From NCBI GenBank assembly GCA_016932215.1, contig JAFGDH010000019.1, forward strand, positions 1,817-65,816: a stretch of 64,000 bases of DNA. Direction: 5' to 3'. Below the pieces are notes generated by a model that made no database searches, had not been told where the DNA came from, and saw nothing but the letters and a program-made list of their open reading frames with translations. Position numbers and translations under genes: made by a program. This DNA comes from Candidatus Aenigmatarchaeota archaeon. Lineage in GTDB: Archaea; Aenigmatarchaeota; Aenigmatarchaeia; QMZP01; QMZT01. Each line of letters opens with the position of its first letter. Position 1 is the first letter of the stretch. Shown here in pieces: positions 7,584 to 43,493 of the stretch.

Positions 7584-7604
7584 CTCACCCTCAACTTTCT
7601 AAAT

Positions 7605-7624
7605 ATTAACTACTTAATAGTTAA
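7605..7624. promoter_or_regulatory. palindromic operator-like site TTAACTA-CTTAA-TAGTTAA
   Basis: 7-bp perfect inverted arms in the divergent spacer between 6993..7583(-) and 7677..8009(+). The 17-mer ATTAACTACTTAATAGT is identical at 36040-36056. Confidence 0.4.
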
Positions 7625-34926: not shown

Positions 34927-35667
34927 ATGGACAAAGATCACGTCAAAAAAATAGTCAAAGAGAACTACGGAAGGATAGCTGAGAACAGGGGATGCTGCAG
35001 GTGCGGATGCTCCAAGGGAACGGAGCAGGTATCCAAAGAAATAGGATACTCCGACGACGACCTGGCGAAATTCCCCGAGGCGAACATGGGCCTGGGGTGC
35101 GGGAACCCGACGGCAATAGCAAACATAAGGCCGGGAGACACCGTTCTCGATCTGGGAAGCGGGGCAGGTTTCGACGCCTTCCTGGCCGCTGACAAGACGG
35201 GTAAAGCCGGTAAGGTCATAGGAGTGGACATGACCGAAAAGATGATCGAGAAGGCAAGGACGCTCGCACTGAAGCACGGCCATTCGAATGTTGAATTCAG
35301 GCTAGGTGACATAGAATCCCTTCCAGTCGAAAGCGGAACCATAGACGTGATAATCAGCAACTGCGTGATAAACCTCGCCCCGGACAAATCAGCCGTCTTC
35401 GGTGAGGCGCACATGGTCCTCAGGCCCTCCGGGAGGATGTTCGTCTCCGATATCGTGCTTTTGGAGGAGATCACGGGAGAGCAGAGGAACGACCATCGCC
35501 TTCTGACCGGTTGCGTGGCGGGCGCCCTGCTCAAGGACGATTACATACGCCTGATAGAAAAGGCCGGTTTCGAGGTCCGTGTAATCAGCGAGAACAAGGG
35601 CATAAGCAAGGAACAATATCAGGGCATTCCCCTGGAGAGTCTCGCGGTAGAGGCGACCAAAAAATAA
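34927..35667 (+). CDS. arsM: ArsM-like class I SAM-dependent methyltransferase
   Basis: N-terminal VKENYGRIAE..CCRCGCS. Motif I DTVLDLGSGAGFD. DVIISNCVINL. Confidence 0.8.
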   Translation: MDKDHVKKIVKENYGRIAENRGCCRCGCSKGTEQVSKEIGYSDDDLAKFPEANMGLGCGNPTAIANIRPGDTVLDLGSGAGFDAFLAADKTGKAGKVIGVDMTEKMIEKARTLALKHGHSNVEFRLGDIESLPVESGTIDVIISNCVINLAPDKSAVFGEAHMVLRPSGRMFVSDIVLLEEITGEQRNDHRLLTGCVAGALLKDDYIRLIEKAGFEVRVISENKGISKEQYQGIPLESLAVEATKK

Positions 35668-35873: not shown

Positions 35874-36006
35874 TCATTCCCCTTTCCTCCCGAACCAGAA
35901 GTACATGATGAAGAAGAACAGCGAGGACCCGAGTATAACCCCGATCGTCATGTAGGTCCCGACAATGCTCCAGTCCCCAGTCCTCTCCGCTATCTCGTTG
36001 ACTTCC
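35874..36006 (-). pseudogene. displaced 3' gene end (radical-SAM-type C-terminus with TM tail), repeat copy A
   Basis: The rc reads ..[44 protein letters not shown]. There is no start except an internal ATG at 35951. It is homologous to the C-terminus of the 40893..42038 product. Confidence 0.5.
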
Positions 36007-36039
36007 CTTTGGCGGAAAATAACCTTTATATACCAATAA

Positions 36040-36056
36040 ATTAACTACTTAATAGT
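36040..36056. promoter_or_regulatory. operator-like motif ATTAACTACTTAATAGT
   Basis: Exact 17-mer match to 7605-7621. Sits between TATA-like boxes of the divergent XRE-side and 36103 genes. Confidence 0.4.
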
Positions 36057-36102
36057 GGTTTATATATAATAGGTCTATAGTGGGGTTTGGGAGTCAGTTG
36101 AA

Positions 36103-36975
36103 ATGAGAAGATATGGTACCGGGGACATGACCGAAGAGGTATACAGGAACGAAATAAGCAGATACGGGAACGTGGGTGAATTTATAAAAAACAGGCCCGA
36201 TCTTGCTCCCGCTTTCGTGAAGTGTTTCGAAGACTGGATTAATTCAGATGTTTCCCTCGTTATAGAAGAGAGGTCAGGGAAAAAGGCGGGTCCGGCTGAG
36301 ATATTTATTCATGTTGGAAACAGGGCTTATACTGACGGGAAAAAAGAAATTTACATACCGGTTTCATATACCTTTCCTTTGATGACGGGGGCTTCCGTCC
36401 ATGAAAGGTTGCATTTCTATCCGGAAGTAAATGAGAGCGCTTTATCGTATCATGAAGAGAAAATAAGGGAATCAAAAACTATTCTTGAAAATGGCGGAAA
36501 GATAGGAAGGGAGTATATTTTGCATTTTTTTAAAACCCTTACAGGAAAGCATTTCGATTCATTAGTTGGTCATATCATATCCGAACTGATAGCTTACACT
36601 GAAACAGGGCCCGTTTTGAATGAGGCAAAAGTTCCGTTCGGGATAGATCCGAAGCCCTATTTTGATATGTGGGAAAAAAATCTGAAAAATGAAAAAAATA
36701 CTTTTGAAAGATATGAGGAAAGGGAACTTTTAATCACACCTGAAAGCTTTTATAATGAACTGATAAAATGGTACCAGTATTATTCTTTTGCTCGTCGCCC
36801 GAACGACGTCATGAAAGGGAATATCATTCCTTTAGTCTCGACACAATTTTCCCATTACGCTAAAATCGTGAACGGTTTTGACGAGATGCCCCCGTCCGAA
36901 TTATGGTCGCTGGAACCCGAGAAATTCGTTGAAGAATACAACAGGAAGGTAAGGAAACTGAAGTCGGGGAAATAG
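36103..36975 (+). CDS. HExxH-motif protein (putative zinc metallopeptidase)
   Basis: 290 aa with GASVHERLHF. No other family features recognised. Confidence 0.6.
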   Translation: MRRYGTGDMTEEVYRNEISRYGNVGEFIKNRPDLAPAFVKCFEDWINSDVSLVIEERSGKKAGPAEIFIHVGNRAYTDGKKEIYIPVSYTFPLMTGASVHERLHFYPEVNESALSYHEEKIRESKTILENGGKIGREYILHFFKTLTGKHFDSLVGHIISELIAYTETGPVLNEAKVPFGIDPKPYFDMWEKNLKNEKNTFERYEERELLITPESFYNELIKWYQYYSFARRPNDVMKGNIIPLVSTQFSHYAKIVNGFDEMPPSELWSLEPEKFVEEYNRKVRKLKSGK

Positions 36976-37000
36976 ATTGTTTTTCCTATCCTTCCCCCGA

Positions 37001-37029
37001 CCTATAACCCCCAGTCCTCTCCGCTATCT
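37001..37029 (-). repeat. gene-end repeat copy B
   Basis: The 21-mer CCCCAGTCCTCTCCGCTATCT (37009-37029) is identical to 35975-35995. The preceding TATAACCCC also matches 35933-35941, implying a ~33-nt deletion relative to copy A. Confidence 0.7.
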
Positions 37030-38051
37030 TCGGATAAAAATTCCCGCCAGTGTCTTTTTTTGATGAAGTCGGACATCTCCTTCCTTCTCTCCGCTTCTTC
37101 CCGGTATTCCTTTATGCGGTCTCTTAAGGTGGGCATTATAAATTCTATCTCGCGCCCATAGTGATTGAACCTGTCAATGTCCGCGAAAGCCAGATTTTCA
37201 GGGTACTCGTTTGCATATCCGCGCATCATGGAAATCAGGTGATTTGCATGCCTGATTTCAGGTGCATATATTATTTTATCTGGCAGCTCCTGCTCTAAAA
37301 GAGAGATTTCCCTTTCTGCATTTTCAATACTCGTCTCGTATTTGCTTATGGTAATGAACATCCTGTTCATCATTACCGGGGTTTTCCACCACATTATGTC
37401 AAGGTATCTCTTCCAGTCGTCTATTTTTGAATCTTCCCCTGATAATCTGGGGCATGTCCTTATGTTGTATCCGGTTATGGGGCTTCCGTTTTCCCACCAG
37501 AACAGATCCGGATGCTCTTTTATCACCACTGAAAACACTTCTTCCATTTCCGGGATGAGTATCTCTTCCTTTGTCTTCAGGTTCAGGCCGGGGAAATCCT
37601 TCCTGTAATCGTAGGAATGGATAAGGACCAGATTTTTATCCGGGTATTGCTCTGTGAACATGGCAAGCTTCATGAGCGCAACAGTACTGATTGATTTGTT
37701 TCTCCATGAACCCTTGACTTCGATGTAATCTCCGGTACTTGGTATGAAAAAGTCAGGGGTATAATTCGTTATTCCCGAATTGGTTATCTCTTTTTTCATG
37801 GTCACCGTTAACGGGAAATACTCTTTCTCGTAAACATAATCGAACCCTGCGACTTTGAGACATCTCGCAATGTTTGCCTCCTGCATGGACCTTACGCTGT
37901 GACCCAGGTCATACCTGTATCCCGCCAGCGGGGTCCCCGTGTTTCCTGACAAAAAAGCACCGTCAACCTGGTTAGGAGCACTGCCTTCAGCCAGCTCAAT
38001 GTCTCCGAAACCGGGATGTCTCATATATCCCTCGATGAAAGGTTTGCTCAT
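37002..38051 (-). CDS. PD-(D/E)xK nuclease-fold protein (TnsA-N/Vsr-like) with orphan C-terminal domain
   Basis: SVRSMQEANIARCL...NYTPDFFIPSTGDYIEVKGSW gives the E...D...ExK catalytic pattern. 349 aa. Confidence 0.65.
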   Translation of the reverse strand: MSKPFIEGYMRHPGFGDIELAEGSAPNQVDGAFLSGNTGTPLAGYRYDLGHSVRSMQEANIARCLKVAGFDYVYEKEYFPLTVTMKKEITNSGITNYTPDFFIPSTGDYIEVKGSWRNKSISTVALMKLAMFTEQYPDKNLVLIHSYDYRKDFPGLNLKTKEEILIPEMEEVFSVVIKEHPDLFWWENGSPITGYNIRTCPRLSGEDSKIDDWKRYLDIMWWKTPVMMNRMFITISKYETSIENAEREISLLEQELPDKIIYAPEIRHANHLISMMRGYANEYPENLAFADIDRFNHYGREIEFIMPTLRDRIKEYREEAERRKEMSDFIKKRHWREFLSEDSGEDWGL

Positions 38052-38105
38052 GTTTTATAAATAGACATAAATTTTTTAACTGGAGAATTCATTCATTCCC
38101 GACAT

Positions 38106-38144
38106 ATAAGCCCCCACCTTCTTAGCTATCTCATTGACCTCTTT
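38106..38144 (-). repeat. gene-end repeat copy C (non-coding relic)
   Basis: The rc reads TAA-KEVNEIAKKVGAYMSGMNEFSS*. 30 of 39 nt are identical to copy D. Confidence 0.7.
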
Positions 38145-38155
38145 TTAGTGTAGAT

Positions 38156-39019
38156 TTACAATAAGAGCTTTTCAATATTTTCCTTAACGACATCGATTTT
38201 TGCGAAATCCTGGATAAAATTATTCCCAACCTGATAGTTAAATGTTATTCTATGACAATTTTTTATTTTCCTGGCTAATTCATGGATCGGGTATGAAAAA
38301 AACAATCTTCCCGCGGGATTTTTTTTCATTTCATTCATCACCGCATCTTTAGATGTATCATAACCAAGCCTGGAAAGAACGGTATCTTCAAGCCTGAGCG
38401 CAATTGCTTCGTCAAAAATACCCATTGTTCCGAGTAATGCTAACATATCCTCAGCAAAATCCCTCCTTTCACGGGTAGTTTTCTTAAATTTCAATTTCAG
38501 GTTTCCCCTCTTATTAACCAGTTTTGCAGGAAAATCATCTCCATTTATAATGTTGCTCAATATTCCCTCTGCGACAACTAATGGGTGATTCTGAAGGGCA
38601 AACCCGATAAAATGATTATATTCATGAATATATGGTGCAATAAAACTGGGGTAATTCGGGTTTCTTGATTTTTCCTTGACAAATCCCTTTTCCGGAAACG
38701 AGAATAACGGATATGATGTTATGGCATTTTGGTAATTTATTCTCCCGTCAGATGAAATTTCAAGGCTTCTGTCATAAGTGGTGGAAGCAGTGAACATGGC
38801 ATCATCAAAACCCCCAAAAAATATGCCGGTACCTATTTTATTTAGTTCCCTGACAGTTTTTTCATCCGTGAAGCTGGACGGCCCAAGTAATCTCTTAGAT
38901 TCGCTATCCAGAAGATGAATATCATCCATTAAAATATCAGAATAGATTTGCATCAATTGATTTCTATATTTTTCCAGTTCTTCTTTTAAGCCCGTGCTGT
39001 TTCCAAAGTATTCTAGCAT
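38156..39019 (-). CDS. HExxH-motif protein (putative zinc metallopeptidase)
   Basis: 287 aa with APYIHEYNHFIGF. Very AT-rich. Confidence 0.6.
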   Translation of the reverse strand: MLEYFGNSTGLKEELEKYRNQLMQIYSDILMDDIHLLDSESKRLLGPSSFTDEKTVRELNKIGTGIFFGGFDDAMFTASTTYDRSLEISSDGRINYQNAITSYPLFSFPEKGFVKEKSRNPNYPSFIAPYIHEYNHFIGFALQNHPLVVAEGILSNIINGDDFPAKLVNKRGNLKLKFKKTTRERRDFAEDMLALLGTMGIFDEAIALRLEDTVLSRLGYDTSKDAVMNEMKKNPAGRLFFSYPIHELARKIKNCHRITFNYQVGNNFIQDFAKIDVVKENIEKLLL

Positions 39020-39038
39020 AATGCATAACCTCTTTAGC

Positions 39039-40826
39039 CTAAACGTCTTCCCAGACGAAGTCCTGCCATCTTCTGTCGATTATCTTTTGAAGGTGGAATT
39101 CCTTGAGCATTTTATAAACGTCATTTCTTGTCAAATAAAATACGCCGGGGTTTTTCTCCATACTATTCAGTTCACTGATTGTTTTCTCATCGCCGAATTT
39201 TTCGATGTATTCCCTCCCTGAAATTAATTTATCCATTTTTCTATGTGTCACTGGATCGAAACCCATTTTCATGGACTGACTTATTTCGTCAGAAAAAAAC
39301 AAGCCACCCTCATAACTCATCCCTATCATATTCAGCCCAATCCCGTACCGATTTTCTATCAGCTCAGCTTCCTCTCTCAGACGCAATTGATTAATCACCT
39401 TATCTATCTTGGACGGGTCTTCTGCCCCGACAATCAGAACTCGGCGCCCGTCGGGAAATATGCGAGGCTCGGTCCCCGGTCTTTGGAAATTCGAGGTATC
39501 TTTTACGACTTTCGTATAAAACTCTCTTGCTTTTGCAAGATACCGGAAAACTCTTTCCGGAATGGCTTTGTGTATCCTGTAATATACTTCCAGAAGGTTG
39601 GCTGAGGTTCCGCTCGAATACCTGAACTGTGAATCCATTCCCCGGTCCAAAAAGCCCTTCCTCACGGCCTCCCTGAATTTCTGCACGTCTTCATTTTCAA
39701 AATTACGCCAGAAACCTATCCCCGTGCCCTTTTCAAGATATTTCATGAAATCGTCAATATCCTCGTCGAAACATCTTAGTATTGTGGGCAATATTCTTGT
39801 TGAAATGGCATGCCTCCAGAACCTGTTGGATGTTACATGACCGGACGGCAATACTATGTTATCGTCTTCTGAAATCCTGTAATCGAAATCCTCAACGAAC
39901 GAACATATCATGCTTTCTAACATTTCATCGTATTCCATGACATCCTTGTAGCTCTTTAGCAGTTCCAGCATGTTTTTCATTTCCCCCGACACGATACCTT
40001 CCCCCAAAAATTCGTTCGTCTTTTTAACGTGTTCCATCTGATGCCTTTTCAGTATCTTTTGTATTTCCGTGACTCTTGCGGTTGCATGGGTTTCGTTTCT
40101 GTCGCTCATGAAATGCTGAAACACTATCGCATATTCCGGGCTCAGTGATATGTGCGGTTCCTCTTTTGGCTGGTTTTCGAAGGTGCGGGTGGTTCCCCTG
40201 CAGTCATTAAGATAACGCATTATTCCGCGCCTGATATTCACATAGAGCTGGTAATTGAAATACATGCTTTTCGGGTCGTCTTCATATTCCCTGAAGTCAT
40301 TGAACTCCGGGTTTATTTCTCTTCCGAGAACATTGAATATTTCCCAGTCCCTGGGAGCGAGGGTTTCTCCTCTCAGCCAGTTTTCAACAGTGCTTACGTG
40401 CCTCTTTTTACCGTTCCTTTCAAGCGCATTAACTACCCATTCGGCCATCATCTCATAGTCTTCTTTAGCGAAATCATCAGTTTCATAGAGCGCCCTAGAA
40501 TCAATATCAGAATCGTCTATCACACCTTTTTCCGATAATCCCTTCAGAAGCAGGGTCCTTAATCTCGGAATGAAATCTCCCCTTGAATTCTGTTCGTGTA
40601 TCATCTCTTTTGAAAAGTGATATCTGGGGCTTTTGTCAAGATGTGGCTCAACATCCTCAAGATCCGTCTTTGCATAAGGCTTCTGGAATAAGACCATATC
40701 CCCGACATTGACATCGGCTACTTTCTTCTTAAGATAACTTGAAGGGGATACCTGAACATACACGTCTCCGGTTGGATCCAGAAATGAATCTCCCATTGTT
40801 GTTGATATCAAATATTTAGCTACCAT
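39039..40826 (-). CDS. large orphan protein (595 aa)
   Basis: Long clean ORF ending 19 nt upstream of the 38156..39019 gene's start. No motif recognised. Confidence 0.7.
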   Translation of the reverse strand: MVAKYLISTTMGDSFLDPTGDVYVQVSPSSYLKKKVADVNVGDMVLFQKPYAKTDLEDVEPHLDKSPRYHFSKEMIHEQNSRGDFIPRLRTLLLKGLSEKGVIDDSDIDSRALYETDDFAKEDYEMMAEWVVNALERNGKKRHVSTVENWLRGETLAPRDWEIFNVLGREINPEFNDFREYEDDPKSMYFNYQLYVNIRRGIMRYLNDCRGTTRTFENQPKEEPHISLSPEYAIVFQHFMSDRNETHATARVTEIQKILKRHQMEHVKKTNEFLGEGIVSGEMKNMLELLKSYKDVMEYDEMLESMICSFVEDFDYRISEDDNIVLPSGHVTSNRFWRHAISTRILPTILRCFDEDIDDFMKYLEKGTGIGFWRNFENEDVQKFREAVRKGFLDRGMDSQFRYSSGTSANLLEVYYRIHKAIPERVFRYLAKAREFYTKVVKDTSNFQRPGTEPRIFPDGRRVLIVGAEDPSKIDKVINQLRLREEAELIENRYGIGLNMIGMSYEGGLFFSDEISQSMKMGFDPVTHRKMDKLISGREYIEKFGDEKTISELNSMEKNPGVFYLTRNDVYKMLKEFHLQKIIDRRWQDFVWEDV

Positions 40827-40892
40827 AATATAGTAAAAACAGTTAATTTTTTATATTAATTTATTAATGTTTCAGGCATATCAACCAAAAGA

Positions 40893-42038
40893 TTACCCAT
40901 CTGCAGACTTGTAAGCTCCCGTCCTCTTGGCTATCTCATTAACTTCCTTAGGATGGGAGAACAATGCACATGGGGTCCCCTCGTTTTCCAGAAGATGTTC
41001 GCTTTCGCGGATTTCCCTGAAGAGCTTGCTGGAGAAGGCTTCCCTGATTGTTGATTTCAGGAGGTTGTGGGTGGCGATGTTGGAGACCGGGCAGGGTGTC
41101 AGATCGCCGGTCGGGGTGACGTGAGCGAAGCCCTTGCCTGCCGAGACGCATCCTCCAAAGTATTCTTCGTCCCCTGGCGAGTGAATGAGGTAGATCTTCT
41201 TGGTTTCCCTGATCCTGAGGACGAAATCCCTGAACTCTTTCCTTTCCTCACTGGTGAGCATGAGCCTGTGATCATTGCCCCTCTGGGTGACCGGGATGTA
41301 TTCGATGAGGGCAGCGATCTTTATTCCCTTCGCTATGAGGGAATCGATGAGCTTTTCGTCCATCCAGTGGCGGAAGTTGTTCTTGGTTATTGTTGCGGAT
41401 ATTCCTGTTGGAATGCCTGCCTTTATTAGGGCCTGGATGGTCTTTTGTGCCTTTTCGTGGACACCATCGCCTCGTCTCTGGTCGGTCATTTCCTTCGTTC
41501 CTTCCATGCTGACCAGTACACACGTGTTTTTGCAGGATTTGAGTGTATTGATCTCTTTTTCCTGGATTGCTGTGCCATTGGTTAGTATTATGAACAGTCG
41601 GTCGGAGAAGTCTTTGCATATATGGGAGAGGTTGTCTGTAAGGAATGGCTCCCCTCCTGCTATTACGAAGCCAAAAACCCCTGCTTCCGATGACTTTTTG
41701 ATTATTTCTTTCCACTTGCTGCGGGATAGTTGTTTTTTCTCCTTTTTGGAGACGGTTCCTGCCGCCGAGGCATAGCAGCCCGCGCAGGCTAGGTTGCACA
41801 TGGAGGTTATGCTAAGAATCAGGAACGGGGGTATCTTGATCCCTTCCTTCTTTAGCCTGTCCCTGGTTTCGCTGGCCTTTTTGCAGGACTTCATCAATCC
41901 GAGGAAGGAACGGAAGTGGCCTGGATGAGCGACTGCCCATTTGAAGAAGACTTTCGTGAGGTTAGGATCGAGAGTGTTAAGGTATTTTCGGAAGGAGATG
42001 ACCCTTTTCAGAAGGCAGAAGTCTGAGATTTTCGCCAT
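40893..42038 (-). CDS. radical SAM protein with C-terminal auxiliary Cys motif
   Basis: CNLACAGCYA (CX3CX2C). GGEPFL. C-terminal GGCVSAGKGF..TPCPVS..CALF (SPASM/twitch-like). Confidence 0.85.
   Translation of the reverse strand: MAKISDFCLLKRVISFRKYLNTLDPNLTKVFFKWAVAHPGHFRSFLGLMKSCKKASETRDRLKKEGIKIPPFLILSITSMCNLACAGCYASAAGTVSKKEKKQLSRSKWKEIIKKSSEAGVFGFVIAGGEPFLTDNLSHICKDFSDRLFIILTNGTAIQEKEINTLKSCKNTCVLVSMEGTKEMTDQRRGDGVHEKAQKTIQALIKAGIPTGISATITKNNFRHWMDEKLIDSLIAKGIKIAALIEYIPVTQRGNDHRLMLTSEERKEFRDFVLRIRETKKIYLIHSPGDEEYFGGCVSAGKGFAHVTPTGDLTPCPVSNIATHNLLKSTIREAFSSKLFREIRESEHLLENEGTPCALFSHPKEVNEIAKRTGAYKSADG
40912..40950 (-). repeat. gene-end repeat copy D (functional 3' end of the radical SAM gene)
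   Basis: Encodes KEVNEIAKRTGAY. It is the reference copy for repeats A-C. Confidence 0.7.
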
Positions 42039-42124
42039 TTGAATAATGTGGATGTGATAATTTAAACGGTTTCCTTCGTTTGGCTCAGTTATGTCTTAAA
42101 AATAATAAACGATAATAACTGGAT

Positions 42125-42298
42125 ATGGATAACCCTGAGATCAGCTTCAGGAGTAAACTGCTAAAATACGGGGAAATTGTGATTCTGGGGGCAGCCATAG
42201 GAACTGGTCTGTTCCTTACGTGCAGGCAGGGTTATAGTCTGGCAAAAGGATATCTGACAGAGATCGAACGGTCGGTAGAAAATATGTACAGACCATAG
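42125..42298 (+). CDS. small membrane protein (57 aa), below ORF-track cutoff
   Basis: Reads MDNPEISFRSKLLKYGEIVILGAAIGTGLFLTCRQGYSLAKGYLTEIERSVENMYRP*. One TM helix. Confidence 0.35.
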   Translation: MDNPEISFRSKLLKYGEIVILGAAIGTGLFLTCRQGYSLAKGYLTEIERSVENMYRP

Positions 42299-42322
42299 TC
42301 AAAATCACGTTTATAAAGAATA

Positions 42323-42339
42323 ATTAACTACTTTTAAGT
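42323..42339. promoter_or_regulatory. operator-like motif variant ATTAACTACTTTTAAGT
   Basis: 14 of 17 match to the 7605/36040 motif. Lies between a TTTATAAA box (42310-42317) and the ATG at 42348. Confidence 0.35.
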
Positions 42340-42347
42340 GGATATTT

Positions 42348-43493
42348 ATGTCTGATAATTCCGATCTCGTTCGCCTGCAGGGTTTCGACCGGCAGATAGG
42401 GGAAATAGAGATGTGCGTGGGCGATCTTTTTACCCATCTGGACAGCACGGTTTCCGGCGAAAAGAAGGGGAATCCGCAGTATTCTTACGACAGGCCCGGT
42501 TACATAAGCAACTACGTGCACAGGCTCGTCGACATGGAAGGGCAGTTCGAAAGCGAAAGTCCCCTCGGCAAGATACTGGAAGGCAGGAGAAAGGCATCCA
42601 TACAGAAGCTCGTTGCGATATCGAGGATAGGGACGTCCGATTTCACCGGAGCCGCGGAGAGATACTACCGGAACGCTGTCCCTAGCAAGGAAGACGTGAT
42701 GACCGCCGTCGAGGTCATCGGAAGGACGGAATCGTCGGTCGACTGTGATACATTATGCGTTAACGCGGAAGGCCTCGGGGAGAGGATGACGGAGTATCTG
42801 GCCAGGAAGGGCGTTTCCGGGAAAAGGCTGTGGAAGGTCACGGTAGAGTCCCCCGGCCCCATGGAAAGGATGCCCGCACTTTCCCTCAACAAAACAACGA
42901 AGACCGTTAGGATAAGGGACGATTACGTGAAGCCGGAAAGGAAGGCGGAGACGTCCGTCCTCCACGAGGGCTCCCACATAATGCAGTGGGAGAACGGCCT
43001 GAGGCAGCCGCTTCCCAACACCTTTTACCACGGGACGGACGGAAGGTCCGTCGCTACGCAGGAGGGCCTGGCGAGCATAATAACGGAAAAGGAGGGATTC
43101 CCCGGCAACATGAGGAAATACGCCGCCTACGTCATAGCGGTCGATTCCGCTCTCAAAGGAGCGACATACATGGACATATTCCAGTCCATGCAGAAGGATT
43201 ACAGGTTCTCCGAGAAGGACGCGAAGGAGATCGCCCACAGGGTGAAAAGGGGGCTTTCCGACACCTCCCAGCCAGGGGGCTTCGTCAAGGATGCGGTCTA
43301 CATGCTCGGAAGGTGGAGGATACATGATCACGTCGGAAGGCACGGCGAAAGCAACGAACAGGAAACTTTGAAGGATTTCTATATCGGAAATGTCGCCGTG
43401 GAGGACATGGATTCCGCCTATAAATGGCTCCTGAGGGACGGGATCATCAGGCCGGCCGGGTATCTGCCGGACTGCCTGGAAAAGAAGGACTGA
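42348..43493 (+). CDS. DUF1704 / QEGLA-motif metallopeptidase-like protein
   Basis: Contains VLHEGSHIMQWE (HExxH) and ATQEGLASII (QEGLA motif). 381 aa. Confidence 0.8.
   Translation: MSDNSDLVRLQGFDRQIGEIEMCVGDLFTHLDSTVSGEKKGNPQYSYDRPGYISNYVHRLVDMEGQFESESPLGKILEGRRKASIQKLVAISRIGTSDFTGAAERYYRNAVPSKEDVMTAVEVIGRTESSVDCDTLCVNAEGLGERMTEYLARKGVSGKRLWKVTVESPGPMERMPALSLNKTTKTVRIRDDYVKPERKAETSVLHEGSHIMQWENGLRQPLPNTFYHGTDGRSVATQEGLASIITEKEGFPGNMRKYAAYVIAVDSALKGATYMDIFQSMQKDYRFSEKDAKEIAHRVKRGLSDTSQPGGFVKDAVYMLGRWRIHDHVGRHGESNEQETLKDFYIGNVAVEDMDSAYKWLLRDGIIRPAGYLPDCLEKKD

Follow-up and report, generated by a model that had tools for sequence, protein, structure and literature searches.

Do seven neighbouring genes of a DPANN archaeon act together as one system, or were they assembled piece by piece? 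The question is raised by a 64,000-nt stretch of the 81.6-kb contig JAFGDH010000019.1 from Candidatus Aenigmatarchaeota archaeon, a metagenome-assembled genome with JW754_ locus tags (hereafter the window; all coordinates are positions of this whole stretch), in which an initial annotation had described, within 7.4 kb, a conflict/defence island or "just decaying mobile-element cargo". The open reading frames (ORFs) and motifs that it named are all present where it had placed them. We designate the four genes of the low-GC part of this region orfA, orfB, orfC and orfD, and the adjacent radical-SAM/SPASM gene rSAM; L-numbers denote comparison loci or contigs. The block that carries orfA to orfD (~35,995-40,909) is foreign and mobile-element-like. 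It is probably, with a probability that we put at about 0.6, an islet produced by three successive Campbell-type integrations at the 3′ end of rSAM. Hence, of the two possibilities initially offered, mobile-element cargo is retained on account of the repeats, the composition and the lack of co-occurrence of the cargo genes, and the defence system is not.

Copies of the rSAM 3′ end partition a low-GC block

Four direct copies of the rSAM 3′ coding end, 26-45 nt long and all on the minus strand, partition the low-GC block (attachment-like, or att-like, repeats A to D; Table 1). A repeat search returned two pairs: an exact match of 21 nt between copies A and B (35975-35995 and 37009-37029, 100%), and a 44-nt match at 77% identity between copies C and D (38101-38144 and 40906-40949). 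Alignment of all four copies revealed a common core, from which the motif GATAGCNNAGARGRNNGGGRNYTAYA was derived. This motif has four matches in the 64 kb, at 35969, 37003, 38105 and 40910, where 0.02 are expected, and no shuffled sequence reached four. In 1.1 Mb of other loci only two matches were found, which corresponds to noise.

The origin of the repeats is apparent from their translation in the rSAM frame. Copy D reads KEVNEIAKRTGAY and is the normal C-terminus of rSAM: the gene ends with KEVNEIAKRTGAYKSADG and a stop codon, and 21 homologs end with ...HPKEVxELAKSVGAYRTD and a stop codon. Copy C reads KEVNEIAKKVGAYMS, a foreign version of the same C-terminus that is translated as KEVNEIAKKVGAY. 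Copies A and B give EVNEIAERTG and KIAERTGGY, respectively. All four copies coincide exactly with the boundary of a gene or cassette, so that the minus strand can be read in the order rSAM with copy D, orfD and orfC, copy C, orfB with copy B, the inverted orfA, copy A and, finally, the remnant of a DUF2178-like gene and the gene of an XRE-family helix-turn-helix (HTH) regulator. At two of these boundaries the repeat has become part of another reading frame. The last ~8 codons and the stop codon of orfB come from copy B, and this tail is absent from orfB homologs; copy A is fused in frame to the DUF2178-like remnant. No hairpins are found in the repeats, whose folding is no better than that of shuffled sequences (z -0.2 to +1.1), and Rfam and tRNA scans of the window, which could have revealed a structured RNA or a tRNA target, were empty.

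The initial annotation had spoken of an AT-rich hotspot. This description fits ~36.0-40.9 kb only, with a GC content of 0.37-0.45 versus ~0.50, and does not fit rSAM, the MATCAP/DUF1704 gene beyond it or the XRE regulator gene, whose composition is host-like. The GC content at third codon positions (GC3) is 0.43 for orfA, 0.55 for orfB, 0.36 for orfC and 0.49 for orfD, for a window mean of 0.62 (standard deviation 0.12). The corresponding values are 0.64 for rSAM and 0.74 for MATCAP.

Table 1 Genes and att-like repeat copies at the rSAM locus, in window coordinates
Feature	Position	Strand	Remarks
XRE-family HTH regulator, 64 aa	35669..35863	-	PF01381, E=6.7e-17
DUF2178-like membrane protein, putative C-terminal remnant	35877..35975	-	frame translation; similarity by eye, short stretch
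att-like repeat copy A	35965..36012 (motif 35969-35994)	-	distal island boundary
orfA, 290 aa, VHERLH	36103..36975	+	cassette 1; orphan
att-like repeat copy B	37003..37040 (motif 37003-37028)	-	end of orfB
orfB, 349 aa, YTPDFF...IEVKG	37002..38051	-	cassette 2; predicted T7-endonuclease-I-like nuclease
att-like repeat copy C	38101..38144 (motif 38105-38130)	-	12 nt past orfC stop
orfC, 287 aa, IHEYNH	38156..39019	-	cassette 3; putative gluzincin
orfD, 595 aa, no sequence motif	39039..40826	-	cassette 3; Hint/intein-like N-terminal domain
att-like repeat copy D	40906..40949 (motif 40910-40935)	-	functional rSAM 3′ end; proximal island boundary
rSAM, 381 aa, Radical_SAM + SPASM	40893..42038	-	PF04055, PF13186
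57-aa predicted membrane protein	42125-42298		between rSAM and MATCAP; counterpart in syntenic L012, E=9e-13
MATCAP/DUF1704, 381 aa, LHEGSH + QEGLA	42348..43493	+	PF08014, E=3.9e-33

Predicted products of the cargo genes

HExxH motifs occur exactly three times in the 62-ORF gene set of the window, in orfA, orfC and MATCAP. Residue shuffling of this set gives an expectation of 0.77, and three or more motifs were obtained in 23 of 500 shuffles. The three proteins had been described as unrelated-looking, and profile comparison bears this out, as it detected no mutual relationship; a common origin was dropped for the same reason.

The product of orfB had been annotated as a TnsA/Vsr-like PD-(D/E)xK nuclease. 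The PD-(D/E)xK part of this claim stands, and the resemblance is to T7 endonuclease I instead. The nuclease domain, at residues ~45-155, is followed by a conserved middle region and a coiled-coil tail. It matches the T7 endonuclease I family of Pfam (PF05367) with 24.0 bits, under the gathering cutoff of 29.1 (E=3.3e-5), as well as phrog_945, labelled "endonuclease" (E 7.1e-10), and Endonuclease I in PDB 3cae (E=0.0028). The catalytic stretch YTPDFFIP...YIEVKG of orfB is aligned with YTPDFLLP...FVETKG of 3cae, and the PD...(D/E)xK residues are invariant among the three orfB homologs compared. Judged by its sequence, orfB is a predicted T7-endonuclease-I-like PD-(D/E)xK nuclease. There are two full-length homologs, and 76 relatives of the nuclease domain were found in viral contigs; a scan of viral contigs with orfB as a single sequence returned no relatives.

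The orfB homologs adjoin an XRE-DUF2178 gene pair (L032-34) or ABC transporter genes (L035). At positions 10001-11730 of L032, and also in L033 and L034, the orfB homolog is followed by a convergent operon of an XRE gene, 78% identical to that of the window, and a DUF2178 gene. The orfB homolog, XRE and DUF2178 genes may thus once have travelled together.

A word-based search found no homologs of orfC. An exhaustive HMMER scan yielded 74 representatives of ~300 aa with 25-34% identity. Among 36 aligned sequences of the family (~25% identity), only G6, H132, E133, H136 and E204 are invariant, and none of the 36 has a Pfam match. The profile retrieved nothing from the PDB sequences. One relative is named and comes from another Aenigmarchaeota metagenome-assembled genome (MAG); the others are unnamed metagenomic proteins. 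In the AlphaFold model of orfC (pLDDT 92.5, pTM 0.91), the HExxH motif is carried by helix 127-142 and E204, the putative third zinc ligand, by a downstream helix. The initial annotation had looked to structure prediction to place its HExxH motifs in a metallopeptidase-like fold, and that of orfC does lie in a zincin fold. As in gluzincins (thermolysin/M1-like core; PDB 3cmn, putative hydrolase), the HExxH helix is preceded by a mixed beta-sheet and followed by an invariant Glu on a later helix. Unlike gluzincins, orfC matches no Pfam or PDB family by sequence, and it is a stand-alone protein of ~300 aa. On the basis of the model, orfC is a member of a putative gluzincin-type family, unannotated and lacking a Pfam model, which is defined here by at least 74 representative clusters.

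The relatives of orfC adjoin a Cas4-like gene or toxin-antitoxin pairs. On two of their contigs we observed Pfam matches to Sigma70_r2/r4 (L110 3759-5383; L112 8185-9411 and 11354-12891), which are unusual for archaea. One of these contigs carries the archaeal markers Rpb7, Spt4, S24e and S27e; the other is from an NCBI Aenigmarchaeota MAG.

The orfD family is rare, with seven homologs at 23-51% identity. Its N-terminal beta domain is Hint/intein-like and has a Hint fold; downstream of it comes a large helical body, whose HTH-like or sigma-like matches are weak. A rare family of ~590 aa with a degenerate intein-like domain can be defined. The gene is a free-standing ORF, with stop codons 8 codons upstream. 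Unlike inteins and Hint domains, including the free-standing derivatives of the HO type, orfD has no extein and no conserved Cys/Ser1, TxxH or terminal HN: none of the splicing residues (N-terminal Cys/Ser, block B TxxH, C-terminal His-Asn) is found among the invariant columns of the family. No LAGLIDADG or HNH domain was detected in orfD, whose remaining ~500 residues match nothing. There is no significant match to a viral fold, and the orfD profile found no relatives in viral contigs. A similarity to DrmE was considered and dropped, being below any threshold and changing position between homologs.

Homologs of orfD are located between rpL4 and rpL23 (L003 10001-13202, L004, L005 9758-12557) in two lineages, with 53% mutual identity. 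The gene on their 3′ side is unannotated and encodes 469 and 344 aa, respectively, in two mutually unrelated versions. By eye, both partners display a CxC...CxH pattern that resembles a SWIM zinc finger. Elsewhere, the homolog is flanked by an HD-domain gene and by an SNase nuclease gene, next to gatD (L002), or has a DNA ligase gene on its downstream side (L006). No convincing flanking repeats surround the orfD homologs.

orfA is an orphan with an HExxH-containing sequence. It forms a singleton cluster and has no match in Pfam, PADLOC, NCBIfam, PHROGs, PDB, phages, plasmids or viral contigs; phages and plasmids searched by tblastn also gave no match. Its HExxH motif (HERLH) arises in 2.3% of the shuffles of the orfA protein.

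Genes flanking the block

The rSAM gene has ~97 relatives, with ~45-60% identity, in many archaeal phyla (Thermoplasmata, Bathyarchaeia and Asgard archaea are represented) and in Atribacteria, and none of these ~97 loci has orfA, orfB, orfC or orfD near rSAM. Identification of rSAM as a viperin was rejected, the score with NCBIfam NF038283 being 55.9 bits versus a cutoff of 180. SPASM maturases score better than viperin, all far below their cutoffs, and the match to pVip in the defence-system models (PADLOC-DB v2) is a generic rSAM match (62 bits).

Two side observations concern this gene. Stand-alone ORFs of ~100 aa in L029 and L101-L106 (for example L102 3374-3667), located mid-contig, correspond to the C-terminal SPASM part of rSAM (residues ~270-378, 69-74% identity) and may be split or truncated genes. 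In addition, the window contains an ArsM-like arsenite methyltransferase gene (34927-35667), homologs of which are found less than ~400 bp downstream of rSAM at L025 11336-12196 and L093 1088-1960 (E=1e-72 and 1e-75). A role of rSAM in arsenic metabolism was dropped, as such adjacency is confined to 2 of the ~97 loci and so is not conserved.

MATCAP belongs to a real metallopeptidase family, that of the QEGLA-motif metallocarboxypeptidases, as its HExxH motif had led the initial annotation to expect. PF08014 covers residues 41-379 with 115.4 bits versus a cutoff of 27, and both LHEGSH and QEGLA are present; TIGR02421 gives 112.7, under its equivalog cutoff of 338.65. No MATCAP is found on the syntenic contig L012 (1-5157), whose rSAM is 80% identical to that of the window. 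There, other genes occupy ~2.5 kb between the gene of the 57-aa membrane protein, which has no family match, and rSAM, inside which the contig ends; a HEPN/nucleotidyltransferase-like pair is among them. The different gene content of L012 and its lack of MATCAP indicate that the rSAM neighbourhood is variable on both sides in this lineage.

At the other end of the block, the XRE gene of L032 that is close to the window one forms its operon with a DUF2178 (PF09946) membrane protein gene. In the window, the DUF2178-like stretch has no start codon and its end lies 10 nt upstream of the XRE start, with a tail (...YFWFGRKGE, then stop) comparable to that of the L032 protein (...KLYFGRKGDA, then stop). 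The stretch upstream of XRE is, from this likeness, a presumed truncated DUF2178 gene.

The proximity of an XRE HTH and an HExxH protein had been taken as the architecture of ImmR/ImmA modules. The likeness is that the XRE HTH gene, which the PF01381 match confirms as such, lies ~240 bp from an HExxH ORF, orfA. Unlike in ImmR/ImmA modules, orfA and XRE are divergent, with repeat copy A and the DUF2178 remnant between them, and the conserved partner of XRE elsewhere is DUF2178. In addition, orfA returned nothing at E<0.1 from Pfam and NCBIfam, including M78 (ImmA/IrrE, COG2856). The divergent orientation of an orfA devoid of M78 similarity and the XRE-DUF2178 arrangement rule out the ImmR/ImmA reading. 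Overall, rSAM, MATCAP, and XRE with the truncated DUF2178 gene are bystander chromosomal genes and not components of the block, XRE being a chromosomal gene or one from an older element.

A promoter-proximal motif, AATTAACTACTTWWWAGTGG, was also observed in the window. It is an imperfect palindrome (ACTA-N5-TAGT) beside a TTTATA box and occurs three times, for 0.00 expected: upstream of orfA (36039-36058), 7 nt upstream of the MATCAP start (42322-42341) and in a divergent intergenic region (7604-7623). The upstream regions of orfA and MATCAP align over ~38 nt. The motif may be a shared operator.

Origin of the array and known parallels

Archaeal integrated elements often target the 3′-distal part of protein genes and bring their own stop codon; their att sequences measure ~29-69 bp in Crenarchaea, and re-use of the site generates tandem arrays (PMC6563490; PMC4779613). 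The low-GC block was probably shaped in the same way. Incoming circular DNAs, each with its own version of the rSAM 3′ end, would have recombined by a single crossover at the last ~15 codons of rSAM. Each event would have kept rSAM intact, with copy D as its present end, and left one displaced copy per junction (C, B and A). The three cassettes consist of orfD and orfC, of orfB, and of orfA. As in integrative elements, direct repeats flank the inserts and one of them lies inside the target gene. Copies A and B are 100% identical over 21 nt, which suggests that the junctions around the orfA unit are the freshest, and the 77% identity of copies C and D suggests donors from other strains. Because no recombinase is recognisable in the cassettes, these would be decayed remnants of larger integrative elements or would be cis-mobilisable by an integrase encoded elsewhere. 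We infer that integration produced the repeats, and likewise infer the order of events and any benefit of the cargo to host or element.

Several observations weigh against such integrations. Among the ~47 window proteins scanned, there is no integrase, transposase or Cas1, and the cargo has no recombinase-family match. Neither an empty site nor an excised circle was found, the sole close relative, L012, ending inside rSAM. Two Logan contigs of the same sample offer no alternative junctions, being colinear with and 100% identical to the window, and the att motif is absent from viral contigs. With 1.0-2.8 kb and intact ORFs, the cassettes are far below the typical size of integrative elements. 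Apart from A and B, the repeats are 57-81% alike, so that the events would be old or the donors diverged. The fusion of copy A to the DUF2178 remnant, where a native rSAM tail would be expected, implies at least one extra rearrangement. Finally, the region downstream of rSAM was searched in ~70 other loci for further copies of the rSAM 3′ end, which yielded only noise, and the array is thus lineage-specific.

Some of these observations could be accommodated if the repeats arose locally, by duplication, gene conversion or illegitimate recombination in a decaying region, or if they were a shared 3′ regulatory or terminator element. Copy A, chimeric with a DUF2178 fragment, tells of a rearrangement that happened on the spot, the repeat identities are low except for A and B, and no recombinase was found. 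However, what the copies keep is the rSAM frame and the pattern EVNEIA..G.Y and not a structure: they fold no better than shuffled sequences and Rfam finds nothing in them. Moreover, they coincide with the cassette borders and the change in composition, and copy C is a diverged allele (77% identical to D), which fits import from another strain better than local duplication. We consider a local origin rather unlikely. It is quite unlikely, in our view, that the cassettes are selfish homing genes, whose orfB nuclease and/or Hint-like orfD would cut rSAM at its 3′ end or act at different conserved sites, for example the rpL4-rpL23 spacer, and which repair would copy in together with flanking target sequence. 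The intact endonuclease-I-type catalytic motif of orfB would suit this, as would the resemblance of the orfD N-terminal domain to inteins, which are classic homing elements. The units are of one or two genes with intact ORFs, and two lineages have orfD homologs lodged between the rpL4 and rpL23 genes of a ribosomal-protein operon, with different downstream partners. Yet T7 endonuclease I is structure-specific and not sequence-specific, as is well established, and orfD has neither a nuclease fold or motif nor catalytic residues in its Hint-like domain. Direct repeats of the target on both sides of the insert are not a normal outcome of homing; no flanking repeats are seen at the orfD homolog loci, and the orfA cassette has no candidate nuclease.

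The proposal of one undescribed multi-gene system of defence or conflict, composed of all seven genes or of a core such as orfB, orfC and orfD, is very improbable, and the lack of co-occurrence largely refutes it. In its favour is the presence, inside 7.4 kb, of a nuclease, two metallopeptidase-family proteins and an XRE regulator. The restriction of HExxH in the window to three of these proteins, the ~38-nt promoter-proximal motif shared by the upstream regions of orfA and MATCAP, and a variable neighbourhood with a HEPN/nucleotidyltransferase pair in L012 also speak for it. However, relatives of orfB, orfC and orfD reside in unrelated contexts and never side by side, which by the initial annotation's own reckoning tells against a system, and a phmmer comparison of all window proteins with every ORF of the comparison loci showed no co-occurrence. 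The remark that the cassette genes match no nameable defence system was sound: PADLOC has no family for orfA, orfC or orfD and only an insignificant match to PDC-S69 for orfB (E=0.019), its matches to XRE are to generic HTH domains, and those of rSAM to pVip do not indicate viperin. In addition, the genes are split by att-like junctions and differ in composition, rSAM is conserved in 97 loci without the other genes, and MATCAP is absent from the syntenic L012. Single cargo genes, namely the virus-type nuclease and the peptidase, may nevertheless have conflict-related roles.

Successive integration at rSAM, the reading that we prefer, thus removes a false lead, in that there is no new multi-gene defence system at this locus. 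It is replaced by a testable structure, a candidate integration hotspot at the rSAM 3′ end of a DPANN archaeon with an attachment sequence of ~26-45 nt. Very little is known of gene acquisition in DPANN genomes, and stacked integrase-less cassettes would help to approach this question, provided that their mobility is borne out by population data. It is doubtful that the att-flanked units make up a functioning archaeal cassette system, in which small integrase-less modules would shuttle between DPANN genomes by recombination at a conserved gene's 3′ end, mobilised by an unrecognised recombinase, possibly of the orfD family, whose members between rpL4 and rpL23 have swapped downstream partners; we regard this as distinctly unlikely.

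Three known systems can be compared with the array. In Streptococcus thermophilus, the accretion model of the integrative and conjugative elements (ICEs) ICESt1 and ICESt3 at the 3′ end of fda involves cis-mobilisable elements (CIMEs), att-flanked segments without a recombination module. Like the units of the window, CIMEs build up a tandem series behind a housekeeping gene, at its 3′ end, and could be mobilised in trans. Unlike these units, they are bacterial and the integrase of the cognate ICE is known; the window units have no known cognate integrase or intact parent element. Integron arrays likewise stack small cassettes, mostly of a single gene, from promoter-proximal to distal, with a repeat resembling a recombination site as the border of each. 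Unlike in integrons, no IntI lies beside the array, the repeats derive from a coding 3′ end and do not form imperfect palindromes or hairpins, and one cassette is inverted. An integron was rejected on the grounds that window scans found no integrase and no attC-like hairpins. The archaeal tandem arrays, represented by the integrated mobile genetic elements of Thaumarchaeota and by casposons in ef-2 or tRNA-Leu, have in common with the window a 3′-distal target, a replacement 3′ end with its stop codon, direct repeats of tens of nucleotides flanking each unit and growth of the array by re-use of the site (PMC6563490; PMC4779613). In contrast to them, the window units have no tyrosine or serine integrase, no Cas1 and no terminal inverted repeats, measure 1.0-2.8 kb and are bounded by diverged repeats. 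The novelty is modest: in the array, a known phenomenon takes a variant form, in a phylum that has been little studied, and two uncharacterised protein families accompany it.

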